From Nemertoderma westbladi (lineage: Eukaryota > Animalia > Xenacoelomorpha), in the NCBI GenBank assembly GCA_032718475.1, contig JAUCBJ010007069.1, positions 1-34,717 of the forward strand: DNA of 34,717 bases, read 5' to 3'. Position 1 is the stretch's first letter. Each line of letters starts with the position of its first letter. Of this stretch, positions 9,934 to 34,104 are shown one piece after another. A program made the translations under genes and the position numbers. A model generated the notes under the pieces. The model was given only the letters and a program-made list of their open reading frames with translations, searched no databases and had not been told where the DNA came from.

Positions 9934-10352
9934 AGTTAGTGATGGCGTTACACGTGAAGGACTTAGAGATTAAGTTAGTGATGGCGTTACACGTGAAGGA
10001 CTTAGAGATTAAGTTAGTGATGGGATGGCGTTACACGTGAAGGACTTAGAGATCAAGTTAGGGATGGCGTTACATGTGAAGGACTTATAGATTAAGTTAG
10101 TGATGGCGTTACATGTGAAGGACTTAGTTACACGTGAAGGACTTATAGATTACGTTAGTGATGGCGTTACACGTGAAGGACTTAGAGATTACTTTAGTGA
10201 TGGCGTAACATGTGAAGGACTTAGAGATTAAGTTAGTGATGGGATGGCGTTACACGTGAAGGACTTAGAGATTAAGTTAGTGGTGGCGTTACATGTGAAG
10301 GACTTAAGATTAAGTTAGTGATGGCGTTACACGTGAAGGACTTTAAGTTAGT
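9934..10352. repeat. 39-bp minisatellite, ~11 copies
   Basis: Unit AGTTAGTGATGGCGTTACACGTGAAGGACTTAGAGATTA with small indels; no unique spacers. Confidence 0.95.
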
Positions 10353-11284: not shown

Positions 11285-11920
11285 AAAATATTAAAACTAA
11301 GGTAACAGTTCCGTATCCGCATAGCACTACATTTTTATACCATAAATCATGGTTACCATGGCAACATTGTAGAGTTCTAGAACAAAATATAAATATTATA
11401 CAGTGACACAAATTCTAGAACTTAAATAAAATTAAAAATATAACGTTCTAGTACATAGCTAGTTATTTTTCAATTTTTAATTAGCTTGTAATTTAAAAAA
11501 ATATAAAAATTGTTTTATTAATGTTTGGTGCTTTGGTAATTTTCAATATTAATTTAAATGTAGGCCTATTCAGAAATTTATTTAAAAATAAATTTTTTGA
11601 TTTACTAGGTATTTTAATTAAAAAAAACTAGCTACCGGTATATGTTAGAAATATAACAATTTTCAATATTCATTTAAATGTATTCAGAAATTCATTTAAA
11701 TACTTTTTTTTAATTTACCAACTATTTTAAAATTAAAAATAAACTAGCTATATGTTCTAGAACGTAATATTATTTTATTTTATTTATGGTTTATAATAGT
11801 ATATAATTATTTTCATTTGTTCTACAACTCTTCAACGTTGCCAATGATATAAGTTTTAAAAATGTAGTGCTATACAGACCTCTAGTCAAAACGGTATTCC
11901 TTCTAGAATAATATTTTTTA
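11285..11920. mobile_element. AT-rich foldback/MITE with long degenerate inverted arms
   Basis: ATAGCACTACATTTTTA (11321) vs TAAAAATGTAGTGCTAT (~11857); further arm matches around TGGCAAC...AGAGTT.TAGAACAAA and ACGTTCTAG..ATAGCTAG. Confidence 0.6.
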
Positions 11921-12469: not shown

Positions 12470-12603
12470 TTATTACCAGGTTATTTAGTTATTTTACGAG
12501 TTATTTACCCGAGGGACATGTTATAGACCCGAGGCGAAGCCGAGGGTTTATAACTGGCCCGAGGGTAAATAATGAGGAAAATAACTAAATAACCTGGTAA
12601 TAA
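12470..12603. repeat. Long palindromic hairpin centred on GAGGCGAAGCCGAG
   Basis: TTATTACCAGGTTATTTAGTTATTTT pairs with AAAATAACTAAATAACCTGGTAATAA; inner CCCGAGGG units give tandem GA mismatches. Confidence 0.8.
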
Positions 12604-13128: not shown

Positions 13129-13381
13129 CACGAAGTGAGCGAAGCCTTAGCATATATATGGGTGTCATTAACGAGTTGCCTGTCGTCGTCGTCTGTCGTC
13201 GTCGTATATTTTTGATCGCTAATAACTCGGTCATTCCTTGTTTAAATTAAACGAAATTTGGTACGTATATACGTACAGTAGTCCGGCAAAAGTTTAGAAA
13301 GAATCGGAATTTTGTTAGAAAACGAACGACAAACAACTCGTTAATGGGTCCCCTATATGCTAAGGCTTTGCTCACGTCGTG
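13129..13381. mobile_element. MITE-like element with ~48-bp inverted repeats and internal (GTC)n
   Basis: CACGAAGTGAGCGAAGCCTTAGCATATA...CATTAACGAGTTG (13129-13178) vs CAACTCGTTAATG...TATATGCTAAGGCTTTGCTCACGTCGTG (13334-13381). Confidence 0.75.
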
Positions 13382-14524: not shown

Positions 14525-15285
14525 TCTACCACTAACTCTTACTAACCGGTACTACGTACCCTCTTACTAACTTCTAACTCCACTAACTCTTACTAACCGG
14601 TACTACGTACCCTCTTACTAACCTCTGACTCCACTAACTCTTACTAACCGGTACTACGTACCCTCTTACTAACTTCTAACTAACTCCTACTAACCGGTAC
14701 TACATACCCTCTTACTATCCTCTAACTAACTCCTACTAACCGGTACTACGTACCCTCTTACTAACCTCTAACTAACTCCTACTAACCGGTACTACGTACC
14801 CTCTTACTAACCTCTAACTAACTCCTACTAACCGGTACTACGTACCCTCTTACTAACCTCTAACTAACTCCTACTAACCGGTACTACATACCCTCATACT
14901 AACCTCTAACTAACTCCTACTAACTGGTACTACGTACCCTCTTACTAACCTCTAACTAACTCCTATTAACCGGTACTACGTACCCTCTTACTAACCTCTA
15001 ACTAACTCCTACTAACCGGTACTACGTACCCTCTTACTAACCTCTAACTGACTCCTACTAACCGGTACTACGTACCCTCTTACTAACCTCTAACTCTCTC
15101 TCAACTAACGGTACTACGTATCCTCTTACTACTAACTAACTATCTAACTAACGGTACTACATACCCTCTTACTACTAACTAACTATCTAACTAGCGGTAC
15201 TACGTACCCTCTTACTACTAACTAACTATCTAACTAGCGGTACTACGTACCCTCTTACTACTTAACTAACTATCTAACTATCTGC
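14525..15285. repeat. Tandem array, ~16 units of 51, 46 and ~43 bp
   Basis: Core AACCGGTACTACGTACCCTCTTACTA at 14544, 14595, 14646, 14692, then every 46 bp to 15060, then ~43-bp variants. Confidence 0.95.
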
Positions 15286-15695: not shown

Positions 15696-18600
15696 TTAAA
15701 GGCCTGATGACCCCTGTTCATCCTTCGGTATACACGATGTCTGCATATGTAATGCCCCCTCGCACTGTGCCAGTCCCGTGTGCGTGTGTAACACACCTTC
15801 TACTTTCCTGGCTTCTTTGTTACCTTTACTCTTGGGCTTCTCTGCCCCTGGTCTAATCATCTCACATCTTCTCCCTTTCCATCTTGTCTTCTTACTCAGC
15901 CTCTCCCTCTTCGGTATGCCTCTCAACCGGACCGGCGTCTCTTCCGGACGTTCCTCCGGACACTCCTCCGGACGGTTGTCCTCCTGACATCTCGCCGTCC
16001 ACTCCTCTCCATCCCCATACCGATACTTGCTGGGAACATCCTTGTTCCATCCCATTGCCTCTAAATCTTCTGCATCCAAGCCATTCTCCTCCGCCCACTC
16101 TCTTGGTGTTGCTTCCACTTCTAGCTGTCTCCCCCTATCGCCCGTCTCTTGTTTCTCCTCTATCTCCTCAACAGTTCCTGGCACCATGCACCCTGAACTC
16201 TCGGTTACACTGAATGGTATATTGGTTCTGATTGGGCCGGTTAGCGTCCACCCGAATGGTGTTAAAATCGCCACCGGGTCACACTGCCTGTCTTCGCCGA
16301 AGACCGTTTGCATTCTCTCGTGGGCCGTCGGGCAGTCCATTCCTACTATAATGGATACCTTCCTAACGTCCACCTCTGGGATTGAGAAGTCGATACTGTC
16401 CAGGAATTTATATTGCTCGACCTCGATGTTGGTTGGTCGCCTGGCGTTGATATTTATCGACTCTATCACCTGGACGGGGTCGATGGTCGCCCCGTAGTCG
16501 CATCCCGGTGCTATCGCTGCTATTGCGCACCGTCCGGTCCTCATCTCCAGGACCTCATCTTTGCTGGAGATGGTTGTTACCGCCATTCTACTTGGCCTCA
16601 TTCTCAATCCTATCTCTTCGGCCACCCAGTCCTCAACCAGCGTGAAGGCTGCTCCACTGTCGACCAGCATCAGTGTGGTCACTGATCGATTGCCTTCCCC
16701 AATTATCCTTACTGGTACTACCCCTAGTAGTACCGTTCCTCTCTTCTTCGCCCCTACGGTGCTTGTTGCCATCGTCTGACCTTTACTTTGACCGAACTTA
16801 ATTGGCGTTTCCTTGCATTGGTTAGCTCTATGTCCACTCATCACACATTGAGAACAAATTTCATTTCTCCTCGCGTATTCTACCTGATCTTCCCTGGGTA
16901 GTGCTTGCCAGTACCTGCAGTTCATGGTCTGATGAAGTGCATTTGTATGTAATTGGCATTTGTTCTTTGGGTTGTAGCCATCCTTATACAGTGCGCTGCG
17001 TATCGCACTTGCGTTTGTACCAAAGTCCCTACTGTTCTTATTGCTTGGGTTCGGCCTACTGGGTGTGCTGGGGTTATGTTTATTTGTGTTGTTATTTTTC
17101 CCCTGTCCGCTCCATGGTGTGGTCTTACCCCCGGCTACTTGTGGACTAGCAGTCCCCTGCGTTGCCGCATACGGCAGTGATTGTCTGAGCTTTGGCAATG
17201 CGTTCGCCGTGTTATGTTCTGGTTTCGGCCTGTGGTATTCGGTCTTTGATCCCTTTCCCAGGCTATCCTCACTATAGACTGGGTCCGTTATTAGTTCGGC
17301 TTCATAGTTTAAGAAGCTCGACATTTCTTCTAAACCCGGTTCCGCACCCTTCCTGTCTCGAGTGGAGAAGGCGATCTTCCTCCTCTTGTTGCGCAACCAC
17401 ATCGGCAGTGCCTGCGCTATCGTGGTGATGTTATTGGATGCGTTAAGTTCGTATGGCGCGTCCAGCGTCTTTAACACGATTAGCGCTTTCTCGACTTTGT
17501 TAGCGAATGTCTTTATGCTAACGGGGTTATCCTGTAGGCCACCCGATGTTATACCTCTCAGGGTTTGCCGGATGATCTTGGCTGGGTGCCCGTACTCCCT
17601 GTCTAGTGCCCGCCATGCTGTCGTGAAGCCACCCTCGATGCCCTGGTATTGCCTCACGATGTCGTATGCTGGGCCTCCTGTATACACTTGCAGATACTTT
17701 AGGCACTCCGCTTGTGTCAAATTCTTCGTTAGTATTTCATTACTATACATGCGCCGAAACTGTAGGTATTCTTCCGGTCTACTTCCATCGAATTTAAATG
17801 GTTCTACGGGTGGTAACTCGATCCTAGTTTTTAATGCATCGATTAGTGTAGCCATTCCCATTGCTTGTGCTTCCAATGGGTTCGATGGATGCTGTATAGA
17901 TTCTCCCGTTGGGTGCGGTCTGTTCGTCCTGTCTGCTGCTTTCCTTTGACTCGGATATATCATTGGGGGTAGCGGCCCCCTCCATATTTCGGTGTCGCAC
18001 GATCTATTCTCGTCCAAGGGGTTCGATGTTCTTATTCCTATTGGGGTGTATTGTTGATATTGTGATGGGGGAATGTCACCCTGTCCCCCCCCCCCCCCCC
18101 CCACCGGTATGTTTGGTACTGGGGTTGATGTTAATATATTGGGGCCCATACACCTATCCGCAATAACTCTCCCCTCCCCTGGATATATGTTATGTCCTTG
18201 CATGCTGTAGTCATACTGCTGTGCTGGTACCGGTATAGGCCTATCCACTTCTGGCCTACCTGCCGGTATGTACTCCGCGACTTCCGGGTTTAATCCCGTC
18301 GTCCGCGCTATCCTATCGCCTACATTATCTCTCCCAGCATGGCCTATGGTATGTGCAGTAAGGCCTACAGTATGTCCTGCAGTCTGTATGTGTCGCTCGG
18401 GATCGAAGTTTAATCTTCTCGAATAATCCTCCCCGTGGCTACCGTACTCTCGATCGCTAGGCAGATCCCGTCGGGAAGTTTCTCTTCGACCCCCTCTACT
18501 GCTCTCGTCCTCGTACCGGTGCATCCCGTACCCCTCTCTCGACGCGTAGTACGCCTCATCAGGTCGCGTTTCCCCGGGACGACGGCAATCTCCCGAAGTC

Positions 18601-18941
18601 CGACCCCACTGACTCTCCGTCTCCATCTCTACTACCGACGGCTCACTATCCGTCCTCGCTCTCCTGTCGTTCGTGACGACACTTCTTCTACTCTCTTTCC
18701 TTCTTCTCTCTGCAGTGCAGTATCCCCATTCGTGAGATCTCTCGTCGACCTCCCGGTTAAACTCCACTGTTCTTCTTCCCTCTTCTGATCGGGCTCGACG
18801 TTTCGTCGCCCGCCCTCTCGCGACGTCAACCTGTCTCTCTCTGCTCGATCGCACGCCGCCAGGGATACTCGTAACCCCCTTACTATACTCCATCGCCAGG
18901 TGCTGCGGTTCACCTAATTCGCCTCGCGCATTATCCGCCAA
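15696..18941 (-). CDS. BEL/Pao Gag core, Cys/His knuckles and aspartic protease (C-terminal part of polyprotein)
   Basis: FKFDGSRPEEYLQF...LKYLQVYTGG...LDREYG (DUF1759-like); CQLHTNALH...C and CSQCVMSGHRANQC; LVDSGAAFTLV; AILTPFGWTLTGP. Frame stays open upstream to the C20 tract at 19007. Confidence 0.88.
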   Translation of the reverse strand: MADNARGELGEPQHLAMEYSKGVTSIPGGVRSSRERQVDVARGRATKRRARSEEGRRTVEFNREVDERSHEWGYCTAERRRKESRRSVVTNDRRARTDSEPSVVEMETESQWGRTSGDCRRPGETRPDEAYYASREGYGMHRYEDESSRGGRRETSRRDLPSDREYGSHGEDYSRRLNFDPERHIQTAGHTVGLTAHTIGHAGRDNVGDRIARTTGLNPEVAEYIPAGRPEVDRPIPVPAQQYDYSMQGHNIYPGEGRVIADRCMGPNILTSTPVPNIPVGGGGGGQGDIPPSQYQQYTPIGIRTSNPLDENRSCDTEIWRGPLPPMIYPSQRKAADRTNRPHPTGESIQHPSNPLEAQAMGMATLIDALKTRIELPPVEPFKFDGSRPEEYLQFRRMYSNEILTKNLTQAECLKYLQVYTGGPAYDIVRQYQGIEGGFTTAWRALDREYGHPAKIIRQTLRGITSGGLQDNPVSIKTFANKVEKALIVLKTLDAPYELNASNNITTIAQALPMWLRNKRRKIAFSTRDRKGAEPGLEEMSSFLNYEAELITDPVYSEDSLGKGSKTEYHRPKPEHNTANALPKLRQSLPYAATQGTASPQVAGGKTTPWSGQGKNNNTNKHNPSTPSRPNPSNKNSRDFGTNASAIRSALYKDGYNPKNKCQLHTNALHQTMNCRYWQALPREDQVEYARRNEICSQCVMSGHRANQCKETPIKFGQSKGQTMATSTVGAKKRGTVLLGVVPVRIIGEGNRSVTTLMLVDSGAAFTLVEDWVAEEIGLRMRPSRMAVTTISSKDEVLEMRTGRCAIAAIAPGCDYGATIDPVQVIESININARRPTNIEVEQYKFLDSIDFSIPEVDVRKVSIIVGMDCPTAHERMQTVFGEDRQCDPVAILTPFGWTLTGPIRTNIPFSVTESSGCMVPGTVEEIEEKQETGDRGRQLEVEATPREWAEENGLDAEDLEAMGWNKDVPSKYRYGDGEEWTARCQEDNRPEECPEERPEETPVRLRGIPKRERLSKKTRWKGRRCEMIRPGAEKPKSKGNKEARKVEGVLHTHTGLAQCEGALHMQTSCIPKDEQGSSGL

Positions 18942-20734
18942 CGCCTGTGGGACATTCTTTGCCCCCCTCCTCTCGCCGCTATTCTCTCGTTGTGGGGCTC
19001 CTGTAGCCCCCCCCCCCCCCCCCCCCGCTCGCCGCCTATCACTCCACTACCTCTTACTTCACTTCTACACCCCTCTCTAGTCGACACACTAACCCTACTG
19101 CGGCTGGGTCCGTTCACCCCCGCCTCTCTCTCTACTACTGTGTGGCCTACCAGGCCACCCTCGGGTTGACTCAACCCCGCCACTTCCTGCCTACTAACTA
19201 CGTGGCCTACAAGGCCCCCCTCGGGTTGGCTCAACCCCGCCACTTCCTGCCTACTGACTACGTGGCCTACCAGGCTCTCATTGGGGTTTCTCACCCCCGC
19301 CACCTCCTGCCTACTGACTACGTGGCCTACCAAGCCCTCATTTGCCGGGCTATGCACGTCCGCCACGTTCATATTAATAGCACCATTACCAGTATTATCT
19401 GTTAAATCAATTAAGTCCTCCAAATCAATTAAATTATTTTGCACGCCTAAATTAGAAACGGGATTATTCTGTTCGTTTGAAATAAGATTATTTGAATTAT
19501 TTTGCGTAATTATATTATTTGAATTATTTTGTAAATTCGAATTTAGATTATTTGAATTATTTTGTAAATTCAGATTTAGATTATTTGAATTATTTCCTAC
19601 GTTTATATTAGAATGGCTCGGATTTAAATTACTACCATCAGACAAAATGTTATTTCCTGCAACAAAAGTTTGATTAGGGTTATCCACTACGGTACTATTA
19701 ATATTAACGTCCTCTACTGTATTATTATCATTATTACCCCCCCCCCCCCCCCCCCCCCCCCTGCCCGTACGGTCACACCAGTCTCGGGTCTGTCGTCCGG
19801 TCCCTGTAAGTGGGGTATTAATAAATGTTTCCCTAACTCCTGGCTCCTCGTAAATACTACTCGAGCCAGCCTCACTCTCTGACAGCCCCATCTGTGCCAG
19901 TTCTAGTCGGCGCTTCTGTTTGGCTTGATATTGCATAAGCCCCCTCAACCGGGCGTGCATATCATCCCGCACACGCTTTCCCGTTATTTCTCTCTCTCTA
20001 TCCTCTCCTGAACTCTGATCGGCTAACTCCGCCTCTCTCACAACTCTCTCCAGTCGTCTCGCCTCGCGCTCTTTTCGCTCACTCTGCTCTCTCGCCTCAC
20101 GCTCTTCACGTCTATTCTCCTCTCTCGCCTCACGCTCTTCACGTCTATTCTCCTCTCTCGCCTCACGCTCTTCTTGCTCCTTCCTTTCTATCCTCCCTAT
20201 TTCCTCACACTCCTTAAAACTTCTCGCGACCTTTTCGGCTCTCTCTCTGTTCTCTCTAGCCAGTTCTTTCTCCTTTTCTAATAACGCACTCCCTTCTTCC
20301 AACTGTCTCTCTAATTCTCTCTGGTCTAGCGCCGCCAGATCGAGTTGGCACGCCAGATCTATTTCTAGCACCCGTCTTACTTTTGCGGAGGATGTAGCAG
20401 ACTTATCGGTTGCGACGGACTCCCTCCGCCTTCCCGTCCTACTAACTTTCCCCCGCCTTCCGGAATTTTCGCCGACCGACGAGACCGAATCCTCGGGGTT
20501 AACCTCGGATTCGCCCTCCTGCGGTCTCCTCCAACCCACTAATTTAATTCCCCGGGCATCGACTAAGTATGGCCCTATGTACACTACACCAGGCTCCATA
20601 CCCCTGCATTCCCACAGTTCAAACAGTTCGGTGGCAACCCCTCTCGCTCTCTCATCGGCTAGTTCTCCCTGCCCAAAGAGCACTAAGTAATCAAAATGTT
20701 TATTCGACTCACCTAGCCGCTTCTCTAGCTCCAC
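18914..20734 (-). CDS. Gag N-terminal extension: Glu/Arg coiled coil, Asn-rich tract, GLVGHVVSRQEVAG repeats
   Basis: 606-aa ORF overlapping the downstream Gag ORF in the adjacent frame; EEREAREENRR repeats; 60-bp coding repeats at ~19140-19340. True start uncertain. Confidence 0.7.
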   Translation of the reverse strand: MELEKRLGESNKHFDYLVLFGQGELADERARGVATELFELWECRGMEPGVVYIGPYLVDARGIKLVGWRRPQEGESEVNPEDSVSSVGENSGRRGKVSRTGRRRESVATDKSATSSAKVRRVLEIDLACQLDLAALDQRELERQLEEGSALLEKEKELARENRERAEKVARSFKECEEIGRIERKEQEEREAREENRREEREAREENRREEREAREQSERKEREARRLERVVREAELADQSSGEDREREITGKRVRDDMHARLRGLMQYQAKQKRRLELAQMGLSESEAGSSSIYEEPGVRETFINTPLTGTGRQTRDWCDRTGRGGGGGGGGNNDNNTVEDVNINSTVVDNPNQTFVAGNNILSDGSNLNPSHSNINVGNNSNNLNLNLQNNSNNLNSNLQNNSNNIITQNNSNNLISNEQNNPVSNLGVQNNLIDLEDLIDLTDNTGNGAINMNVADVHSPANEGLVGHVVSRQEVAGVRNPNESLVGHVVSRQEVAGLSQPEGGLVGHVVSRQEVAGLSQPEGGLVGHTVVEREAGVNGPSRSRVSVSTREGCRSEVRGSGVIGGERGGGGGGLQEPHNERIAARGGGQRMSHRRWRIMREAN

Positions 20735-21800: not shown

Positions 21801-22361
21801 GATTATGTTGATTAAATTTAAAAACAGTTAGATTATCAGAAGAAATTTAAAGAACCAAATATTTACATTTTAACTTTATGTTATGTGCAAATGATTTATC
21901 GCGAAGTGTGAAATGGATGTGGGGAAAGTTGGATATATGTAAACCAAATTGATTCAGCTGTTATTACCAAATAAATTCTGACTCACCCACTAAGAAGGGG
22001 GGATGGCAAACTATCTCTGTTACACATTTTTTGCAATTTTATTATTATTAAAAAATATTTATAAGACGCCGTATACACGATGTTCTAGACTTACAGTAAA
22101 AAAATAATAACTTGAATATAAAATAACATAAAATTATTTGAAAAAGGTTCAATAAAGAAAATGAAAACGTATTACTGTATTTGTACGCTCTAATTCTACC
22201 GCGCAATGTGAAAAGACAGTAAAGTCGCATTTTTCCAAAATTAACTTTTACACTTTTTCTAGTTCTAAAAAATGCTCTCTAAACGAGAACACCGTATCTA
22301 CTCTAGTTCTCGTGACATTCAATTGAAAAAGGCCGGAAGTCACAACATATGTATAGTGTTA

Positions 22362-23053
22362 CAGTACAGGCCACCAGAAAAAGCAGATCTCATCCAATGT
22401 GATCACATGTGAACACATTTGCTCAAGTCATCTGATTGGCAGGTTATGGCGAGTTATCTTCTAGATCACACAGCAGGAGGCTAACTTGCTGGGACCGACA
22501 AAGGCTTTGTGTGCGGTGCGCCTGTATGTCTGATATCAGGTAGATGAGAGAGCCCCCAGGGCATAACATTGCGGACATGGGCTGTATTGGTAGAGAGAGA
22601 ACTACATACAAGACCACATGGAGGTTCATGGAGTGTATGGGAGTGGATGGGTATGTGGATGGAGGAGCCTAGACCATTGAATAATTAATTTAGTGCAGGG
22701 AGATGTCGCGCCTAGTCTGACACCGAGAGGGCACAGAGAAACACCAGAAGAGATGCCTTAACATCACTAACTATAGGCCTGCCTACTAGACACTATTAAC
22801 CGCACACTATAAAGGTAAACAAATCCTTATCGCATTTCCAGCTGCAGTGAGTGACAGTTCGCGGCAAACTACAGAGAGTTTCCAGATTACTAAGCGTTTC
22901 AAAAGTATTCAATTGTATCCTTTGGCGAAAAAATTTTGGTTGTTGCCAATTCAATTATGTCCAAATGTTCAACAAAATTACATTACACTGGTACACATTT
23001 GATAAAATGTGTTCACAATTGTACAAATCTGCGTTTTCTGGTGGCCTGTACTG
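22362..23053. mobile_element. Tc1/mariner-pogo type MITE (692 bp) flanked by TA
   Basis: TIR CAGTACAGGCCACCAGAAAA.GCAGAT at 22362, reverse complement ending at 23053; TA at 22360-61 and 23054-55; no transposase ORF. Confidence 0.8.
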
Positions 23054-24745
23054 TACAAAGGAAAAAGACCCTAAGTGTAATACAAAAGACCGCAACTACT
23101 TAAATTTTTTGCAAAAACACCGTAAGTCAGCGAAACTTCGGTTTTTTATCATTGCATAGATAATAAGAAAACGCACACGGTTTTATTGAAATATAATATT
23201 TTGACGACTTACTGTTATTTACTATTAGCTGAAAAGGCGCGAAATACAAAATTGAATTTTCACCAAATGATTTGCGGAGTTTATCATCATCATATCGTCG
23301 GTAAAAAGGCAAAAGGGCATTCGATAAAAAAATTGTTCAGGAGACACTAAAAACCTTATGTCTTTATTGGTTCAACCAAATTTAATATATTTGGTATCTG
23401 GTGAAAGCTCTTTATCATTTTATTTGTTATTTTTTATTTTATTTATACTTTATTCCAGGTAACAATTAATATTAAAATTAACATCAACCCATAATACAGT
23501 AATAATTAATAGCACAGGAGAAGTTGTATAATGTAATTAAAAGTTGGATATTATCGTCGTTAAGCGACTATACTGTATGTAAATTATTATTGACAAATAA
23601 TAATCAGCAGCTTGGTCTATTGGTGTGGTGGCATTCCTGGGCTTCCAATTATGAAGCACTGATTCTATCCCTAGATCGGGCAGCACTGTTTGGGCCCAGT
23701 GCTTTAAATGCTGCAGCCTAGCCCAAACCTGGCTTGCTGGCTTTCATCTTTAACTGGTCGATAAATGGGAACCAAGGCTACTTGGGAAACAGTGTGGAAG
23801 GGTTTACTGTGGAAGATCACCCATGGTGGTGAACAGGCATTCCTTGGCTTAACGACCCTAAAAGATTCTCTCATTCATGATTGACAAATATGTTATTGAA
23901 GATCCTAGAACTATGTATTGTGCACCTATTAACCAGTGAAACAATATTATTTTTAGACACATTAACCCTATCGTACAAACTTTGTATAGATCTATATCGA
24001 ATGTGAATGAAAGACGGTATGTTAATTTTAATTTTATGTTAATTTGAATTTTGGTATGTTAATACCAAAAAATAATGACATACTAGAACGGAAAGGCAAT
24101 TTGAATATCATACGTGCAGCCTAATTATAAGCAACCTTAAGACGGTCTATTCAGAATAATTCTGAGCGGACCATAATGCGTTACAATAAAGAGGCGTGAT
24201 ATATGACCTAAAAAATGTAAATTTCACGGTGTTAGTGCAATGGGGTAGACGACTCGGAAATTTTTTTTCGAGTTTTCGTTGGTTTCATGTGAAAGAGCAT
24301 GTGAAAAAACCCCAGAGAGCAATTTTACTTTAAAAAAAATACTATTGGCCGAATTAGCCCTTTCCGGCCGACTGTATATTTTTGTATACACTGAATTTAT
24401 TTCACTATGAATTGCATAATTTTAACTAATTATAGTTGGTTTCATCCAATTGAGACCCTATCACACTTCCTTTACTTATAAATTACCGATTCTGATTGGA
24501 TAATTGTAGTAGAAGGCTTCAATGAACGATTTTAGATGCTGTGTTTTCAGGTATTGACATGATGACTACCTGGCATAGGAAAGATGGCTATTTAAATGCT
24601 TTGGCAAAGCGATATTGAGAATTTTGATTGGGTATTCCAAAGATGGATTGTCCAATGAGATAATAATACTTCCAGGATAAACGTTACAGTACAGGTAGGC
24701 TGGTAGTGTTATTGAAGTAGTATGGGTATAGCCTTCTTTGGCCCA

Positions 24746-25375
24746 GTGTCTGCCATAGCCCATCATTGATGTCAATCATCGAATGCCTGCGTGTGTCTGC
24801 CATAGCCCATCATTGATGTCAATCATCTAATGCCTGCGTATTGACGACTATTAACAACCAATAGGAACGCAGGAATAATCACAGTTTAACCAATAGGAAT
24901 GTAGGAATGTGATGGCGGCAATATCCTACATTCCATTCCCGGTCATTGACCTCAACAGATTTAGCGCTTCCTTACTCGAATGCTTGTGAGTGTCTGCCAT
25001 ACTTTATCATAGATGTCAATCATTGGATGCCTGCGTATTGACAACTATTATCAACCAATAGGAACGCTTACAGTTAAAGAATGCAGGAATAAATCACAGT
25101 TTAACCAATAGGAATGTAGGAATATGATAGCAGTAAAATCCTACATTGAACAGTTTAATCAATTAGCAAGTCGTCGAACTTGATTACTTAGATGTCAATC
25201 ATTGAATGCCTGCGTATTGACAACTATTATCAACCAATAGGAACGCTTACAGTTAAAGAATGCAGGAATAAATCACAGTTTAACCAGTAGGAATGTAGGA
25301 ATATGATGGCAGTAAGATCCTACATTGACCTCAACAGATTTAGCGCTTCCTTACAGTTTTTAACTAATAGGAACA
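24746..25375. repeat. Composite repeat: 48-bp duplication plus three ~180-200 bp CCAAT-rich units
   Basis: GATGTCAATCAT...TGCCTGCGTATTGAC...ACCAATAGGAACGC...AGGAATGTAGGAAT...ATCCTACATT at ~24815, ~25012, ~25191. Confidence 0.85.
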
Positions 25376-25536
25376 CAACATTATGGTGAAGCAAGATCTC
25401 AGTTTTACAGAATCACCATCCACCAATATTTAATGCCAAATCAAATTGTCTATATGTTGTTGTAGACGGACATATTTTGTTGACAAGCCGGCACAGCATT
25501 CTTAATAATGCAGCTGCAATGCAGCATGCCGATCCT

Positions 25537-25553
25537 AGTAGTAGTAGTAGTAG
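25537..25553 (+). other. Candidate Maverick terminus (AGT)5AG; preceding GATCCT is the candidate 6-bp TSD
   Basis: Polintons begin with 5'-AG, often short AGT/AG repeats, and have 6-bp TSDs; lies ~700 bp beyond the last ORF. Could also be a simple microsatellite. Confidence 0.5.
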
Positions 25554-26242
25554 ACGGATGATGCAGTGGTGCTGTCATAGAAGTAGCGTATGTAAGCCCA
25601 AGTTATTGCCGCTCTCCATGAATTGAAAATGAATTGAAAGATGACTTTAATTGATTATATTAACTTAAGAATAATCTACTGTACTAAACATGTAAATAAG
25701 CCCCTACTGTATGTACAGTGACAGAGCTTGGAAGAGAGTGAGTGCATTCTGCCAAACATGGCAAAGCCTTTTTATCTGTAGTATTCACATAGGCATCAAC
25801 ATGACCTTAATTAATTGTTAATTAACGGTCTGATATTGAATGTTGTGGTGTACAGAATGTGGCTATTATGGTGTCACTATACAAACAGTATTACATAAGG
25901 GTGACGACACATTGTGCACGGTTAACAATTTAAATGATATTAAATTAATTACAACACCCGCCACCACAATATTGTATGACGTCGCATATTGGTTTTCATG
26001 ACAGGTGCCTTCCCGATGATGGAGTTGTTATCTTAGCCTATATAATTCAACAAAGTTTAAAGTTTTACTTTGTGTCTTTGATGAAGTCTATTTCATTAAA
26101 TTATTTATATTTATACAGTATTTATATATTAAAAACGGATATGGGGAGGGAGGGTGTTATTGAAACAGTTGTCAATTATTGTTTTACTTACCTTGTGTAT
26201 ATGTAATATACTCTATCTTAAATTAATTATATATAATAATAA

Positions 26243-26485
26243 TTAATAAAACTTACCTTCTTTCATTGCACCTTTTTCGAAAATTGATTTACCATTTCTG
26301 TATTCACAGTATCTTAAATGATGCGCTTGTTCCGCTTCAGCAAAGAAGTGTGAGTCATGATTTGGACATTGAATCATTTTCTGATGTGGATGATTTTTTC
26401 GACATTTTCTAATATGTCTGACAAATCTGTCCGCATGGATCCTATGGCAAGGGTCATACGGACAGACAATGTATTCGTTATCCAT
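26243..26485 (-). CDS. GTSF1/Asterix-like tandem CHHC (U11-48K type) zinc-finger protein, 80 aa
   Basis: MDNEYIVCPYDPCHRIHADRFVRHIRKCRKNHP...QCPNHDSHFFAEAEQAHHLRYC: two C-x5-H-x9-H-x3-C fingers with GTSF1-like CPYD, RF..H..KCRKNHP signature. ATG at 26485. Confidence 0.88.
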   Translation of the reverse strand: MDNEYIVCPYDPCHRIHADRFVRHIRKCRKNHPHQKMIQCPNHDSHFFAEAEQAHHLRYCEYRNGKSIFEKGAMKEGKFY

Positions 26486-26938
26486 TATTATTATTACAAT
26501 GTTAACCAATTAATTAATAAAATTAGACTGTAAAAATTAGACTAATACTGTAAATGTATCGATAAGTTGTTGACAGCAAAACTAAATTTAACTAATATTT
26601 TAATATACCTTTTATATAAACTAATTATGCACACATCTGACGGTTGTATTCATTATAACCATAATTAACCCACAAGTTCGTTAACCACCCCAATATAGAA
26701 GATGACACATTTTCCCAAGTTAATTGCGGCAACACGCGTGCGTGAGGAGCGATGGTTGATATAGCTCGAGTAGATCTGATGCTTTAAGTTATAACTAATT
26801 AGTCACACACACACACACATGTTATATGTAATTTTTGTCAAGAATTACACTGTTCGGTTGAATGAATTTATATTAACTAGCGGTGGGGCATGACTCATAT
26901 ATTGATTGTGGGACGGTTGTAAGTATTTGGCTACCATT

Positions 26939-27679
26939 ATGTACATTATGGCTAGCAAACTTGACAATAATACGACTGACGACGCATTATTGAAAGACAT
27001 CTGTATCCGTAATGGTATTGTAAATGTATCGCCACACCTGATTACTTTCCCCTCCGATGACAATAGTTTTTATTTCCATGTATATGGGTGTATATTTAAC
27101 GACTCAAAAAGGAGTTACGGATACATTTTAGAATTAGTGCTGGACCCAATTAGCAATAAATATATTGTATTCACGGATGACCTTTGTCGAGCTATCGCGG
27201 ATACAGATATTCTAGAAAGCAATGAAGATTGCGACCTCATAATGCTCGGGTTAGAAGTCCATTCGAATGCTCAGCTGAAAAAACTGACAACATTAAATTG
27301 CGAGAAAACGAGCATTGTTTTAAGCCAGTATGAACCCGGATATGACACGGTCCAAATAACTCTGGAACGTACCCCTTGGAACAGTTGGGCCGCTGGCAGT
27401 CTCTACGGCCATTTTAGATTGTGGGAAATATTGACCACGGGTTTGGGCTACACTACAGATGGACGGAATATATGTGGCACGGAAACAATTCCGATGTGGG
27501 TTGGGAATGCGCGGGACTTCGACGGGCAATTACCTCTCACAGGCTCGGATTGCATGGATAAAATAAAAGAATGGAGTTTAGAGGCCATTAGAGATCGTGT
27601 TTCAAATAATATCGATGGTTTGGGTTTAAGCACCATAGACCGCATTATAAACAATATTACCATGGTTGAATTGGATTAA
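26939..27679 (+). CDS. Hypothetical acidic protein (~245 aa), Maverick cargo
   Basis: Long ORF in AT-rich surroundings, first ATGs at 26939/26948; globular-like composition; no motif recognised. Confidence 0.7.
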   Translation: MYIMASKLDNNTTDDALLKDICIRNGIVNVSPHLITFPSDDNSFYFHVYGCIFNDSKRSYGYILELVLDPISNKYIVFTDDLCRAIADTDILESNEDCDLIMLGLEVHSNAQLKKLTTLNCEKTSIVLSQYEPGYDTVQITLERTPWNSWAAGSLYGHFRLWEILTTGLGYTTDGRNICGTETIPMWVGNARDFDGQLPLTGSDCMDKIKEWSLEAIRDRVSNNIDGLGLSTIDRIINNITMVELD

Positions 27680-27961
27680 TATCTTTGGCCTCTGGTGAAG
27701 GTGTTTTTATTTGTGCTTTATGTTAGAATTAGATTAATATATTTGGCCTTTGGTGAATGTGGTTTTTTTTTTATTTTTATTTGTACTTCATGTTTATTTA
27801 TAAATATTTACTTTCAACAACTAATATAGTATAATATCAATATAAATATCATTATAAATATTTCACCAATACACCAATTTACACCAACTACAACAACAAC
27901 GACAAGTTATATATGTAATTGTAATATAATTGTTAAATATATATTCCCGACCTAAAATAAA

Positions 27962-28414
27962 TTATTTTATTAATAATAACAGTCCATAAACCCATTTCAA
28001 TAATAATAAATCATTATAATGTAAATTATTGGAATTAAATATTTCCATGGCACGAGGGTTTCTTGGAGATTCGGTCAAATAATATAAAGAAAACAAACCA
28101 CACTGTGTTGAATGTGGACCCTGATATACTTTTCTATTAAAAGTATACCTTTCAGTATATTTGTGGAGCCAGTACGACAGTTTAGGCGGGGGGGATCTAC
28201 CGTAAGAATCCATATAATAACCTATTCTATCAACTACACGAACTGAACTCCAGTGCTGCCCTGGAAGCCCCACTCGTTGGTTATTAACAATAAAAGAATA
28301 TTTGTTTTGTTTCTTCTTCCTTTGTAGCTGTATTTGATCTAATTGGTCAATAGCGTATACACCGAGGTATTCGGGCCCTACCGGAAATTTTGCCAATTGT
28401 ATTGAGTCCAACAT
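27962..28414 (-). CDS. Adenain-like cysteine protease (Maverick PRO)
   Basis: GQHW (His), YMDSYG (Asp), YQGPHSTQCGLF (Gln, Cys); likely start MLDSIQ at 28414. Confidence 0.93.
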   Translation of the reverse strand: MLDSIQLAKFPVGPEYLGVYAIDQLDQIQLQRKKKQNKYSFIVNNQRVGLPGQHWSSVRVVDRIGYYMDSYGRSPPPKLSYWLHKYTERYTFNRKVYQGPHSTQCGLFSLYYLTESPRNPRAMEIFNSNNLHYNDLLLLKWVYGLLLLIK

Positions 28415-28558
28415 CTTGATATGTATGTAATCCACCAAAGGCTTAGAAAGAATCCAAGGTTTGACCAAAACGAACGAACACAACGAGCCAAAATGGAAGA
28501 TATAAGTATTTTTGAGATGGTGATGAGCTCTGACAACTCGTCGATGGTAAGCCTTTAC

Positions 28559-29809
28559 TTACTCTGTAATTATTTCTTTAGATTCTGAAATAGATAGAAC
28601 GCTATCGTAACTTGCCATGACGATTACATTAATTGTATGCTCTAGCGCTTCCCTGAATTTTAAAATCAAGTGTCCAGTTGTATGAATGTTGGGTTGTATC
28701 TCGTGACTCTGATCACCTCCAGCGGTAAGATCGAATACAATTAAAGGAAATTGGGTTCGGTATGTTTCAGGAGTGAGCGAACAGTATGCATTAGATAAAC
28801 TTTTGAAGACGTTCATTAAAGTCTCAAATTCTAGCATATAGTTATTTTCACCGAAGTTGGGTCTATAAGGGTAGCCATGTACCACCTTCGAATCAACATT
28901 CAATTCCCCATAGTTTAAGTTGAAATGATTGAAATTTAGCGGATTGCTACCCAATTCTCCATTAAAGCTAGCATTAGTGAGCATGCCCAACAGAATATAT
29001 TTCGGTAACCTCCCTTGAATTATACTTGAGTGAGTATAACTTGACTGCCCGCCCGCAATTGTGAAGGTCTTCACATCTTGCTTCAACAAGTTATATATAA
29101 AGTCATTTTTTTGTGAACCTACAAGATGCGCTCGTGCCACTTCGTCATCGATTTTATGGCGTTTTATCTTTAGATTGATGGCCATTATTTCTACTCTCGC
29201 ATTTGTTAATCCGGCAGGAGGCTCAACCTTCAGGAAAAAATTATTCGACACGCGGTCCATACGAATTCGAGCAGAAATTCCAGGTGGCAGAAGTTTATCC
29301 TGAGCAGCCAAATCCATAAAGAGTGGCGCAATGACGAATTTGATATAATTCCCACGGATGTTGTTGTCAGTGCCAACAGGGACACCACCCTGGTTATTCT
29401 CATTATTCTCATAGCCACCAGCCCTCAAGATGCCACTTTTTTCATTTGCGTCTGTGAGTAGCAATGTTTGAAATATAGACTTATAAGCATAGAACCCATT
29501 CGAGGTTTCGACAAGTTTTTCGTTTAAATATAAAGAGCAATTTTCAAAGAGTGTGCCGCCGGGATAATTGAGATGGTGGAGGGTAGTATTGTCGTTAGCT
29601 CTATCGCCGTCCCAGGTAATTTTATATTTGATGTGGAATTTGGAATTTTTCAAATCTGTATAAAGAATGTTTGATTCGGGTACAAAAAATTCGATTTGGC
29701 GCGCATTTGCATCGAGAGTAGAAATCGGGTAAATGTCCAACCAGTGTGAAGATGTGTATTCTCTTTGATTAGCTTTACTCGAAAATAAAGATAATTCTCT
29801 TTTGCTCAT
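28559..29809 (-). CDS. Major capsid protein (double jelly-roll, Maverick PY/hexon-like)
   Basis: 416 aa; ELSLF...Q...W..IYP N-terminus, LF....LYLN....YAYK, GRLPKYILLGM...SFNG....NPLNFNHFNL, FDLT motifs typical of Maverick MCPs. Confidence 0.88.
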   Translation of the reverse strand: MSKRELSLFSSKANQREYTSSHWLDIYPISTLDANARQIEFFVPESNILYTDLKNSKFHIKYKITWDGDRANDNTTLHHLNYPGGTLFENCSLYLNEKLVETSNGFYAYKSIFQTLLLTDANEKSGILRAGGYENNENNQGGVPVGTDNNIRGNYIKFVIAPLFMDLAAQDKLLPPGISARIRMDRVSNNFFLKVEPPAGLTNARVEIMAINLKIKRHKIDDEVARAHLVGSQKNDFIYNLLKQDVKTFTIAGGQSSYTHSSIIQGRLPKYILLGMLTNASFNGELGSNPLNFNHFNLNYGELNVDSKVVHGYPYRPNFGENNYMLEFETLMNVFKSLSNAYCSLTPETYRTQFPLIVFDLTAGGDQSHEIQPNIHTTGHLILKFREALEHTINVIVMASYDSVLSISESKEIITE

Positions 29810-29862: not shown

Positions 29863-30396
29863 TCACTTTTTACGCCTAACGTTCATACCCACAGTTGGGT
29901 GTCGCCGTTTGCCCCCCTTCTTTTTTTTAGTTGTTGGCTTGTTGAATTCGTCGTATACGCGCTGGGCAATTCTACGCGTCTTAGGCCTCATACGGCCCGC
30001 CGCTTTATTCAACAAATCATCCGCTTTGCGACGCAAGAAACGTTTACCTTCGGGAATTATATATTTTCGTGCCGCTTTTGCCACCTTTGGAAGTGCTTTA
30101 GTTAGTACTTTACGCCCTAACTTACGGGCTAATAATCCAAGCCCAGTTGTCAGCATTCCTTTTCCCCGCTGTTTATTGGCTCGCCCTTGTCTGAGTCTAT
30201 TATTAATCCACCCACGCCGCTGCCTGAGTCTATTACTCCAAATAGGCCCAAGTAAGTTACTTTTAGGTGGGTTAATTTGGGTTATATTACCTGGAAGAAT
30301 GGCACCACCCTTAAAAACTGGTATGTCGTTATAACCCCCTCCCCCTCGTTGAGCATGCGGGCTGCTATATAATTTAAATAAATTTGAATCTGCCAT
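29863..30396 (-). CDS. Arg/Lys-rich putative virion core protein (adenovirus pVII/pX-like role)
   Basis: 177 aa, highly basic, QRGGG and QRGKG motifs followed by an amphipathic segment; directly upstream of MCP. Confidence 0.7.
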   Translation of the reverse strand: MADSNLFKLYSSPHAQRGGGGYNDIPVFKGGAILPGNITQINPPKSNLLGPIWSNRLRQRRGWINNRLRQGRANKQRGKGMLTTGLGLLARKLGRKVLTKALPKVAKAARKYIIPEGKRFLRRKADDLLNKAAGRMRPKTRRIAQRVYDEFNKPTTKKKKGGKRRHPTVGMNVRRKK

Positions 30397-30659: not shown

Positions 30660-31238
30660 TTACTTTAATAACCATTCACCATAGCCAGCGGCGAGTTTGA
30701 TGGAACAGTAATTGGAACACGCATCGCCAATATCAGAATGAAATGCACACTTTGTTACTAGAGTATCATGGTAAGGGCATTTTACATTATAAGCAACATA
30801 TTTTTCATTTATCCCATAAGACTCTAAAAGTTTTGCACTGACTTTAAATTCATTTTTTAATATATATAATTTTGGTGCTCCGCGAATTAAAATTTCAAAT
30901 CCTCGACGTGCCTTTTCCCGCAACCATTCCTGTATAAATATCTTGAATGTATTTTGATCAATAAAACCATAATCAAAATTTATATGATGGCTTATATTGC
31001 GGACATGGGTGAGGCGTTCGCATTCACTTGAAGTTAATTCTTTGGCAGTCGGTCCGTAAATGAACCAAACATTTTCAACAGATTCAGTAATACTGTTATA
31101 TACAGCAAACTCTTTGAAGTAAATGGTTCCAATGGGTTGGCTGTTCTGCGAATGGATTGTATAATACTGGAAATCTATTATTATCCCAGGCTTACCAAGG
31201 GGAGGATAATCACTGTCGCGACTTAGGTATTTGTTCAT
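30660..31238 (-). CDS. DEDD/DnaQ-derived protein with Maelstrom-like E-C-H-C zinc motif
   Basis: IIDFQ (ExoI-like, DxE to DxQ), YFKEFAV, HHINF, C-terminal CAFH-x9-YCS; domain call by eye. Confidence 0.55.
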   Translation of the reverse strand: MNKYLSRDSDYPPLGKPGIIIDFQYYTIHSQNSQPIGTIYFKEFAVYNSITESVENVWFIYGPTAKELTSSECERLTHVRNISHHINFDYGFIDQNTFKIFIQEWLREKARRGFEILIRGAPKLYILKNEFKVSAKLLESYGINEKYVAYNVKCPYHDTLVTKCAFHSDIGDACSNYCSIKLAAGYGEWLLK

Positions 31239-31313: not shown

Positions 31314-32120
31314 TCATTTGTCAATTCGTATAAAATGAAGTGTTAAAATTGAATCTCCATAATGAAATTGCAACAAATTTCCTGAATCTCCAATCAACCG
31401 AACTCGTATATAACGTAAATTAGATGTTAAATTAACTTTTTTATAGTAGACTTCCTCAACTTCTCGACTAATAATTTGCCCATATTCCCCTTCTATGGGT
31501 ATGCTACGCAACAGAGGGTATTCGCTATTGTCTACAAATTGAGGTTCGACGCAATTGATATGTATATTTATGTTGGGTTCCAGTATTTCGACAGCATCAG
31601 GATGCTTATGGCAGTTGTACTTATTATTCCGTGAATCAATCCTTAGCAAGTGATAATCCCCTACAGCATTTTGTACACACATAAAACCTTTGCCATCAAC
31701 CTCGTGTTCTATTAATCCTAGGTAACCACCCAAACGTTTACTGACAAATATCGACAACTGTTTGCCTTTAAAATGTATGGTTATATTACCAGAGCGTGCT
31801 CTATTATCAATTATATTAATTTGGCCTTTAATAAGGCTTTTGTTGAAGTATTCAATGATCCTTTCCAATGATAGGAAAGATCCTTCGGGGAGAGTAACAT
31901 CTCTTGTAAACATTTTTTTATTTTTTATGGCCTTTATATAAATGTCGCTATTGTCATACCTGATACTAGATACGTACGTTATACCGGTTAAACCTACTAA
32001 CCATTGCCCTCTAGCGAAAGGTAAAGGAATTTGCAAATTTGTTTGGAAATCGCTGGCGCTATTACGTGGGAATTCTATGGGGTTTGCGTTTGAGGGTAGT
32101 ACAACGTAATAACTGTTCAT
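31314..32120 (-). CDS. Minor capsid protein (penton, PX-like) 2
   Basis: YVVLPSNA...FPRNSASDF..L..P, W.VGL..I.Y, PLLRSIP, I.V.L....G....F..G...LTLHF. Confidence 0.85.
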   Translation of the reverse strand: MNSYYVVLPSNANPIEFPRNSASDFQTNLQIPLPFARGQWLVGLTGITYVSSIRYDNSDIYIKAIKNKKMFTRDVTLPEGSFLSLERIIEYFNKSLIKGQINIIDNRARSGNITIHFKGKQLSIFVSKRLGGYLGLIEHEVDGKGFMCVQNAVGDYHLLRIDSRNNKYNCHKHPDAVEILEPNINIHINCVEPQFVDNSEYPLLRSIPIEGEYGQIISREVEEVYYKKVNLTSNLRYIRVRLIGDSGNLLQFHYGDSILTLHFIRIDK

Positions 32121-33001
32121 TCTTGTAGTTTTTGTCGCCGTTGTTGTTTTTTGAGTTCTAGAACTAAAATTGTTTTACCTCCATGAAAGACTATATGCTT
32201 TCCTTTATGGTCGCGAAGCGTTATACTAATTGTATCGAGCACTTTTTTATTTCTTAATTGTTTGTAATGTGTGTTTTTGAATTCCTGGTTGATGAATGAG
32301 TATGGTTCCCATTTCAAGGGGATTATCCGCAAAAGAGGCGCCATCGAATGTCCTACGTGAGAAGATTCAATCATATCTGTATATATAAACATTGTGTGTC
32401 TATCCCTCGTTATATCGCAAGGTTCGGGGAATTCAACTCCATCCATTTTGTTTGTATCCTTACAGCCTAAGTTCAATAAACCATCATCTTCGTTGTAGTG
32501 TATTGCCCAAAGCGCCCCAAGACCCATTAAATTATTTTTTAAACTCGATAACCCGAAAATATTTATTATATCTCCATAGAATTGGAAATAGCGACCTTTC
32601 TTACAATGTAGATGAATTTTTGATGTATGTTTTTGGTAGTTAAACTTAACATCTTTGAAACCGTGGTGGGATATTGAGGGATTTTTCAAATAAACACTAA
32701 TATGGTTTAAAATTGACTCAATAGAAGCATATAGCCCAAGATTAAAATCGATTTCTATAAGATTGTATGGAGCTATATGAAATTCCAAATCCTCATCATA
32801 CATATATTCACCAATTCTAATTCCGGATCTTTGTTCAATATTTCTATAGGTCGACACATACTGTATTTCCTTTAGACCCGCGACCCAATCTGTGCTGACG
32901 GGGATAGGTTTGGACAACTCAATCGTGAAATCGCTGGGAGTGTTATCGGGATATTTATCTAGACTGGCGTCGGAAGTCAACGTTAAATGTAAGTAATCCA
33001 T
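32117..33001 (-). CDS. Minor capsid protein (penton, PX-like) 1
   Basis: LTLTSDAS...YPDNTPSDF..L..PI, W.AGL.EI.Y, FIYTDMIE...VG....PLLRII, ISITLRDHKG..I.F.GG; overlaps next gene by ATGA. Confidence 0.87.
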   Translation of the reverse strand: MDYLHLTLTSDASLDKYPDNTPSDFTIELSKPIPVSTDWVAGLKEIQYVSTYRNIEQRSGIRIGEYMYDEDLEFHIAPYNLIEIDFNLGLYASIESILNHISVYLKNPSISHHGFKDVKFNYQKHTSKIHLHCKKGRYFQFYGDIINIFGLSSLKNNLMGLGALWAIHYNEDDGLLNLGCKDTNKMDGVEFPEPCDITRDRHTMFIYTDMIESSHVGHSMAPLLRIIPLKWEPYSFINQEFKNTHYKQLRNKKVLDTISITLRDHKGKHIVFHGGKTILVLELKKQQRRQKLQE

Positions 33002-33018
33002 AATAATATAATTAATTA

Positions 33019-34104
33019 TTATTGTACGTGATCAACCCTTCGATGTGTCGTAAAACCAACAAATTTAACCAAATATTGCTTTTTGCCGCTTTTATTTACT
33101 TTTTCTTTAATTATTTTTTCAATTGGTAAGAAATTAAATGGTTCTTTTACCTTTTGGATTTCATGTCGATAAAATGTCCCCTTTATAACATGCCCATTCG
33201 AGTCCACAACTTCGTACATAGGGTACGGCTCTCGATCCAATCTTATTCTATAAATTTCAAAAATTTCTACTGTATAATTAGGTGTATAACCTTTGTCAAA
33301 TGGCTTTCTAGCTAAACTCAGCCGCACCTTATCACCAACCTTGAAATGAACTCGACGCTGCGCACGGCGTTTTCTTTTATTGGGATGACCCACACTCCCA
33401 TATAGTTTTAAAAATAGGTCAGTTTCATTCTTTTTATTGACAGAGTTTGGTGCCATACCAATGGTTCTATGTATTGAATTATTATATGCAACCAATATTT
33501 TTGGCAATATACTCATCCATTCTCTATTCTGTCTCCTCGTGAAAATTCTGTACATGCGAGATTTGAGGGTGCGATTGAGCCTTTCACAGATACTAGCTTT
33601 AAATTGGCTAACTAATGTATAAAAATGAACATTATTGTTCTGTAAGAAATCTTTCACCAATTTATTAACAAACTCAGTTCCTTGATCAACTGCTAGTCGT
33701 TTAGGCTTCCTTTCTTCGAATATCGTGGCTAGGGCCCTTTTAATTTCGACCCCTGTTTTACGTTTTAGACCCAACGCCCACGCCTTCCGACTAAAACAGT
33801 CAATACAAGTAAGTATGTAACCGTAGCCATTATTCTCGCCCCTAAAAGGTTGCATATCACACAAATCCGCTTGGTATAGATCGCCAATACCACCCGTGAA
33901 GATTTTTGATGTAGGATAATGGCGTCTAGCCGGAGCGTGTAGAGAGTAGGTCCGTTGAGAGCTCAGCCATTCATTCGCGCGGTTTCTCGAGACCTTCGCG
34001 GCCTTGGCGAGTTTGGCCACACTCGCGAAGCCAGCCGCATGTGAAGCGTCGTAATATATTCTTCCTAGCCGTTTGTTTATTAGATTTTCCTTGATCCTTC
34101 CCAT
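33019..34104 (-). CDS. Retroviral-like (rve) integrase with C-terminal chromodomain-like segment
   Basis: IYYD..H.AGF N-terminus; YQADL, AVDQGTEF, ICERLNRTLK (D,D(33)E); FKVGDKVR, FDKGY; IEKII...QYLVKFVGF. Confidence 0.95.
   Translation of the reverse strand: MGRIKENLINKRLGRIYYDASHAAGFASVAKLAKAAKVSRNRANEWLSSQRTYSLHAPARRHYPTSKIFTGGIGDLYQADLCDMQPFRGENNGYGYILTCIDCFSRKAWALGLKRKTGVEIKRALATIFEERKPKRLAVDQGTEFVNKLVKDFLQNNNVHFYTLVSQFKASICERLNRTLKSRMYRIFTRRQNREWMSILPKILVAYNNSIHRTIGMAPNSVNKKNETDLFLKLYGSVGHPNKRKRRAQRRVHFKVGDKVRLSLARKPFDKGYTPNYTVEIFEIYRIRLDREPYPMYEVVDSNGHVIKGTFYRHEIQKVKEPFNFLPIEKIIKEKVNKSGKKQYLVKFVGFTTHRRVDHVQ

Follow-up and report, generated by a model that had tools for sequence, protein, structure and literature searches.

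Many viruses are known to encode proteins that suppress RNA silencing, and some plant transposons encode anti-silencing proteins; our literature searches brought up no mobile element that encodes a homologue of a PIWI cofactor. PIWI* consists of target-engaged PIWI together with GTSF1 and Maelstrom (PMC13269885; bioRxiv 10.64898/2025.12.16.694471), and the two cofactors contact target positions 21-23 and 23-25, according to the available text of a further report (PMC13618286). That Maverick elements carry host-derived cargo is already clear from the accessible parts of two studies (bioRxiv 10.1101/2022.07.12.499685; PMC8502044). The first of these describes nematode Mavericks with wasp proteases and krma kinases, which resemble the gene reported here in being intron-bearing and poorly conserved and in occupying the few kb between a terminus and an intronless core; the cargo there is a protease or kinase, whereas the gene here is homologous to a silencing factor of hosts. 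The second concerns adintoviruses and Polintons, the same kind of element, whose host-like accessory genes include Bcl2 and IAP homologues, Oncoid and MAEL. In the portion of the supplement of Starrett et al. 2021 (PMC8502044) that was searched, the terms GTSF, U11, CHHC, gametocyte and Asterix occurred zero times, as did GTSF in the main text, and CHHC, U11 and GTSF are absent from the accessible text of PMC3597677. We found no report in print of a GTSF1-like Maverick cargo (subscription journals, Repbase and bioRxiv supplements could hold one), in keeping with an earlier note on this DNA, which was not aware of a description of such cargo.

The gene lies on positions 1 to 34,717 of a contig of Nemertoderma westbladi (JAUCBJ010007069.1), a stretch of 34,717 nucleotides that we call the window (Table 1). 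Translation gives an ORF without internal stops, with zinc ligands C8-H14-H24-C28 and C40-H46-H56-C60, that is, two tandem fingers of the form C-x5-H-x9-H-x3-C, which a profile of 126 homologues matches with an E value of 1e-20. The linker of 11 residues is the commonest length (105 of 129 two-finger rows, the query counted), and the two-finger pattern appeared in none of 3166 block shuffles of the window. Pfam zf-U11-48K, the family named as a check by the earlier note, matches at E 2.1e-8, with finger 1 alone passing; mouse GTSF1 (6x46) matches at 6e-12 and the GTSF1 chain of 9nhb at 7.4e-8, and U11-48K itself reaches 0.013, so GTSF1 is the closer relative. HMMER over representatives returned 614 matches to the protein at E<=0.001; word-index searches with the 80-aa protein at near and longer lengths gave no candidate. 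Identity to any two-finger homologue is at most about 59%, and 51% over the 61 columns of the tree alignment. By sequence comparison, then, the ORF is confirmed as a GTSF1 homologue. The earlier note was right about an uninterrupted 80-aa ORF with two correctly spaced CHHC fingers and zero Trp; its early stop also holds, at 20 residues past C60 rather than about 17 after finger 2. The donor-like site is preceded by 16 residues and one base after C60, and a TATA-like box stands at 26608..26620 (minus), which places it some 125 nt before the start codon.

Compared with GTSF1/Asterix proteins (mouse 6x46, the 9nhb chain, and the tunicates Ciona savignyi, Styela clava and Clavelina lepadiformis), the element gene shares the tandem fingers, the 11-residue linker and three of four basic residues. 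It differs from them in its multi-copy mobile setting, its drifted second finger and its lack of an intron between the fingers. The ORF has no aromatic central region, the part of GTSF1 that binds PIWI and that nematode members also lack; among 109 homologues, 61 carry a D/E/N-W-D/E motif no more than 70 aa from finger 2. Short host GTSF1 proteins likewise have little or no tail, with lengths of 95 aa in T. spiralis (PMC13650160, available text), 71 aa in Anopheles and 78 aa in Condylostylus. These are annotated host genes, and in Anopheles and Condylostylus finger 2 keeps a C-P-aromatic-N motif, unlike that of the element.

Table 1. Features of the element in the window and the evidence for each
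Feature	Position	Strand	Evidence or remark
6-bp left flank of element	24710-24715
Likely left element end, starts AGTAGT	24716..24721	plus	X1 contig breakpoint and motif
Subterminal tandem repeats, families D7, D10, D12	24732..25380	.	repeat analysis
Very-high-depth short repeat (79 bp) with TAG-repeat tail, retroposon-like insertion	25471..25549	plus	9-bp duplication, 25462-25470 and 25550-25558
431-bp solo LTR (TG...CA)	25573..26003	.	5-bp duplication, 25568-25572 and 26004-26008
Second strong donor-like site (26191)	26186..26194	minus	motif
GTSF1-like double CHHC zinc-finger ORF, 80 aa if unspliced	26243..26485	minus	translation, Pfam, HMM, shuffles
Splice-donor-like site AAG|GTAAGT, cut 26257|26256	26251..26259	minus	variant contigs diverge here
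Likely first coding exon of CHHC gene	26485-26257	minus
ORF of no known family, 246 aa, divergent from CHHC gene	26939..27679	plus	no family matches
Cysteine-protease-like ORF, 150 aa	27962..28414	minus	H54-D68-Q/C104 region motifs in expected order
416-aa ORF, major-capsid-like candidate	28559..29809	minus	position
Basic 177-aa ORF, possibly virion-core-like	29863..30396	minus	composition
Maelstrom-like 192-aa ORF	30660..31238	minus	Atlas, residue order
Pair of related ORFs (268 aa, 294 aa), candidate minor-capsid-like proteins	31314..33001	minus
Retroviral-type integrase with C-terminal chromodomain-like part	33019..34104	minus	Pfam
ORF of no known family, 147 aa	34187..34630	minus	element runs off window

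The ORFs to the right of the CHHC gene form an intact, intronless core. Their order and the integrase (rve, E 2.7e-11; Chromo, E 0.0027, below the cut-off) fit a Maverick/Polinton, for which PolB and a packaging ATPase would be expected beyond 34717. The 150-aa ORF is a candidate adenain-like protease, for which Pfam gave Josephin alone (E 0.013) and the PDB no match. The 416-aa ORF may be the major-capsid-like protein and the 268- and 294-aa ORFs may be the minor-capsid-like ones; they have a fitting size and order, but no fold or family match (model pLDDT 31). Models folded from single sequences were of too low quality for use with both the 192-aa and the 416-aa ORF. Family searches and the Atlas gave no match for the 246-aa ORF, none of ten element proteins is present in the exact-sequence collection, and searches of viral contigs with the CHHC protein, its alignment, the integrase or the 192-aa ORF found no related locus. 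Rfam and tRNA searches of the window were without a match.

Contigs of four public DNA runs (X1 to X4; X1 and X2 are one sample, X3 is from another study) were aligned to 24500-28600. On the left, the sequence 24500-24715 belongs to a higher-depth repeat, one X1 contig of which follows the window up to 24715 and continues unlike it; the element appears to have inserted into this repeat. The AGTAGT at 24716 is presumably the Maverick terminal motif; our literature search found no paper confirming an AGTAGT terminus. Because AGTAGT occurs 12 times on the plus strand of the 34.7-kb window, its coincidence with the breakpoint of this one contig is unlikely to be due to chance. Position 24716 is thus the likely left end of the element, which would place the CHHC gene about 1.5 kb inside it. 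A second candidate, an AGTAGT run at 25537-25551, was rejected, since it is the tail of the inserted short repeat, as the 9-bp duplication and the contigs joining across it indicate. The earlier note had placed the gene between the Maverick genes and a candidate terminus: linked contigs bear out its position inside the element, and for the terminus, to which no coordinate had been given, 24716 is the better of the two candidates.

The link between gene and core is seen in both studies. Overlapping contigs connect the protease gene with the ATG at similar depth in X2 (72.8, 67.9, 84.1, 69.2, 68.5 and 65.2) and likewise in X3 (99.6, 108.2, 113.2, 77.6 and 62.1). Past the CHHC gene, X2 (72.7) and X3 (126.8) contigs join 26004 to 25470, skipping both insertions; other contigs, of 1.6-3.5 kb, fit the solo LTR and then continue unlike. 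The subterminal repeats are partly at core-like depth (X3 contig, 24879-25113, depth 124). Core depth is about 3.0 times that of the repeat-junction contigs in X2 and 4.3 times in X3, a rough sign of several element copies, given that contig depth does not equal copy number. Very probably, therefore, the CHHC gene is Maverick cargo. The window holds a single likely element end, and a matching TIR and target duplication would fall outside it, as might also be expected if the ORF were an exon of a host GTSF1 locus beside a Maverick, or an assembly artefact. Such an origin is made highly improbable by the core-depth contig chains on both sides in two studies, by an atypical finger 2, and by the intron that most host-type loci have between the fingers. 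The single host GTSF1 locus, which the earlier note had named as a refuting case, is also at odds with the multiple variants found.

Contigs of X2 and X3 aligned to 26150-26530 contain at least four variants of the CHHC exon, the other copies that the earlier note had suggested looking for. Variant depths are 112.7 and 86.2 in X2, with 88.3 and 37.8 by subtraction, and 108.2, 69.8, about 72 and lower in X3. The two closest variants differ from the window in X2 at 9 and 18 of 154 sites, and the exon is 6-12% divergent, compared with about 1% for most element-core pieces. Overlapping contigs link a single variant, the closest, to the core, and the location of the remaining ones could be different.

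Both of the closest variants follow the window precisely as far as 26257, where they diverge from it; some ten letters further on they have another donor-like motif. This is the site, AAG|GTAAGT, that the earlier note had singled out as a strong splice donor. From the downstream side, X2 and X3 contigs match to 26256 and then carry 397 and 516 unlike letters, so that contigs stop at 26257|26256 from both sides, and the join present in the window is spanned by none of the 16 listed of 33 aligned pieces. The X3 contig (depth 28.3) also matches the promoter region over 30 nt, starting from 26578, in the part that precedes its 26256 side, which suggests a second promoter-exon unit. As the simplest reading we infer tandem promoter-exon units, of which the window copy, damaged or chimeric, would be a chimera or a deletion.

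The donor at 26257 is probably used, and splicing of the CHHC gene in intact copies seems fairly probable; a 25-nt mini-exon between the donors at 26257 and 26191 is possible. With a donor that is probably real, the family probably makes something other than the 80-aa product. An exon encoding the aromatic central region was not found among 2211 six-frame fragments of the window (best E 1.7; none in 24716-26257), and a spliced tail in other copies would lie beyond what the window shows. The earlier note had proposed that a gene trimmed to its finger module could act as a decoy or dominant-negative suppressor, which in its exact form means an unspliced 80-aa protein. The nearby stop, the missing Trp and the lack of a tail exon in the window all suit that model. 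Trimming is nevertheless doubtful, given that the donor is the very point at which the two closest variants part from the window, with a further donor-like motif nearby and with contigs ending at a join that the listed pieces do not span. The kinetics of mutant GTSF1 (see below; PMC9385479) point the opposite way as well, and we regard the exact model as quite improbable.

Conservation is uneven along the protein. The conservation of finger 1 is that of a typical GTSF1, with lower scores in 73 of 126 homologues. It retains R20, K27 and K30, corresponding to mouse R29, K36 and K39, with His in place of mouse R26, so that three of the four RNA-binding residues are retained in the comparison. Finger 2 is near the bottom of the range (2 of 126 homologues lower) and lacks the otherwise conserved F/Y42, N43, A44, P49 and D62. 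Among 19 listed differences between variants, 6 are synonymous and 13 are not. With 39 S and 189 N sites this amounts to a rough ratio near 0.45, based on a small set that mixes paralogues and in which sites near contig ends are unlisted. The sole listed difference at the eight zinc ligands is synonymous. Signs of decay are also present: the short repeat is inserted at 26429, within finger 1, in one copy (X2 27.8, X3 41.4), finger 2 seems by eye to be interrupted by a stop in a single X2 contig of a distant variant, and two insertions lie 0.2-0.8 kb downstream of the exon in the window copy.

We consider it probable that the gene is retained for a function, and the drift of finger 2 is equally well explained by relaxed selection. 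The CHHC gene could instead be a neutral passenger, in which case a piece of GTSF1, once captured, would have been duplicated in a plastic subterminal region and would be decaying slowly. The interrupted copies, the downstream insertions, the drifted finger, the 13 non-synonymous among 19 differences and an exon more divergent than the core are all in favor of this. Against it, all eight ligands and the linker length are kept in the window despite the low identity to homologues, ligand changes among the variants include no non-synonymous one, and an ATG and TATA-like box are in place; such passive carriage is in our view unlikely.

The gene was likely captured from a host. Finger 1 is closest to tunicate GTSF1: with five further residues it is identical at 21 of 26 positions to the GTSF1 of Ciona savignyi, and equally to an ENA protein that carries no name. 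Trees of 61 columns (a quick tree of 127 rows, and one of 35 selected rows) do not place the gene, and a tunicate clade for it is not rejected in the 35 selected rows (AU p 0.574). A metagenome search with the single CHHC protein found no related locus; a closer alignment found 16, of which 13 match finger 1 alone and 3 look like transcripts, and 8 of the 13 have a donor-like site after finger 1 or the linker. No Maverick gene was seen at these 16 loci (a 36-aa match in L012/L013, E 0.004, was taken as chance), and thus a second species with CHHC cargo was not found. Most host-type loci have an intron between the fingers and the element copy has none, consistent with RNA-mediated capture or with loss of the intron. 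Both fingers apparently share one exon in some homologues (P0016, P0026, P0027 and P0031), so the absence of the intron is not decisive on origin.

The 192-aa core ORF may supply a partner. Its best named Atlas family is Maelstrom PF13017 (0.90, 172 of 256 features); unnamed Atlas clusters score 0.94-0.95, one of them 46% viral and most commonly from Preplasmiviricota. Residues E43, H78, H84/85, C164, H167 and C178 follow the EHHCHC order given for Maelstrom in the accessible text of Zhang et al. (PMC2628886), and D22 is kept with Gln at the second acidic site, leaving the DEDD set incomplete. The Pfam scan of the ORF was empty; Maelstrom bears these residues on an RNase H/DnaQ fold, and a fold search from the poor model gave Z<=4.2. 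The protein is likely Maelstrom-like, of the MAEL class. A MAEL gene is already known as a label, since the available supplement of Starrett et al. 2021 (PMC8502044) has four "MAEL" labels on adintovirus maps. The element thus likely holds look-alikes of both PIWI* cofactors.

If the CHHC gene has a retained function, we lean slightly toward anti-silencing. In this scenario, finger 1 with its basic ridge would occupy the site of GTSF1 on target-engaged PIWI and bind the guide-target RNA there. Finger 2, having drifted, and a tail that may be missing would fail to complete PIWI*, and the Maelstrom-like protein would do likewise at the neighbouring site. A likely Maelstrom-like gene within one and the same element adds weight to piRNA-pathway interference in the wider sense. 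That the two proteins together may blunt PIWI-piRNA silencing of the element is possible, though somewhat short of probable. The fullest version, in which a Maverick would encode mimics of both PIWI* cofactors that sit on target-engaged PIWI and leave it incomplete, as a two-part piRNA suppressor, with the GTSF1-like family under diversifying pressure, we hold to be doubtful. MAEL-like genes are widespread in such elements with no GTSF1 partner reported, which speaks against interference, and the co-occurrence here may be due to chance.

Biochemical work on mouse GTSF1 bears on the direction of any effect. Without its three Trp residues the protein binds PIWI 60-fold more weakly and activates slicing equally at saturation, and an RNA-binding mutant does not activate slicing (Arif et al., PMC9385479, available text). 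From the Trp-mutant kinetics, one would expect weak activation, or no activity, from fingers on their own. Loss of finger function with the tail preserved would be the more natural design for a dominant negative, and the slicing that Trp-less GTSF1 still activates (same source) argues against the idea of the earlier note that a finger-only protein could be dominant negative. A finger-led protein could also help PIWI, or be too weak to matter.

Along the same lines, the gene may be functional cargo that is no antagonist. Its protein might activate PIWI, fully or weakly, or it might bind RNA in the service of transcripts made by the element, or serve another partner such as an RdRP. It could then sharpen the silencing of competing transposons or limit the activity of the element itself. 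Activation by Trp-less GTSF1 at saturation (PMC9385479) is consistent with this, as is the binding of the RdRP RRF-3 by the fingers of nematode GTSF-1 alone, described in the accessible text of PMC13650160. T. spiralis GTSF-1 and the finger-only host proteins noted above show that short forms exist, and a spliced tail could restore PIWI binding. It is less obvious what an element would gain by boosting the pathway that silences it, and the five conserved residues missing from finger 2 count against a working cofactor. We find this explanation rather unlikely and give some preference to interference with silencing as the function of the gene. The GTSF1-like variants and the Maelstrom-like gene are defined candidates for mobile elements that fight the piRNA pathway directly, and assays exist in PIWI slicing with GTSF1 and in PIWI* assembly. 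A stimulating effect, if true, would be equally informative, as a case of an element arming host silencing.

Several minor observations concern the runs and the rest of the window. Core depth in X1 is 24 times that of its junction contigs, against 3 times in X2 from the same sample, and amplification or library bias is possible. X4 contigs, which show presence only, cover the LTR and the short repeat and neither the core nor the CHHC exon. Neither the X1 ratio nor the X4 coverage enters the reasoning above. X1 shows a 1-nt deletion at 27503 in the 246-aa ORF, which lies head to head with the CHHC gene. The same TAG-tailed short repeat was inserted twice, downstream of the gene in the window copy and in finger 1 elsewhere. 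A motif of 44-70 bp occurs both inside and outside the element (23382-23447, 27676-27719 and 27734-27802); this D16 repeat (23382 versus 27676/27734) was not accepted as evidence for an element extending to 23.4 kb. On the minus strand, 2-4000 and 15696-20599 hold gag-protease ORFs of BEL/Pao type (DUF1759, aspartyl protease), the latter ending without a pol region and with a 561-aa low-complexity ORF upstream. Tandem arrays occupy 14531-15271 (46 bp), 9928-10343 (39 bp) and 5472-6014 (289 bp), and inverted-repeat pairs of MITE-like size lie at 22360-23055, 13129-13381, 12470-12603 and 11316-11878.
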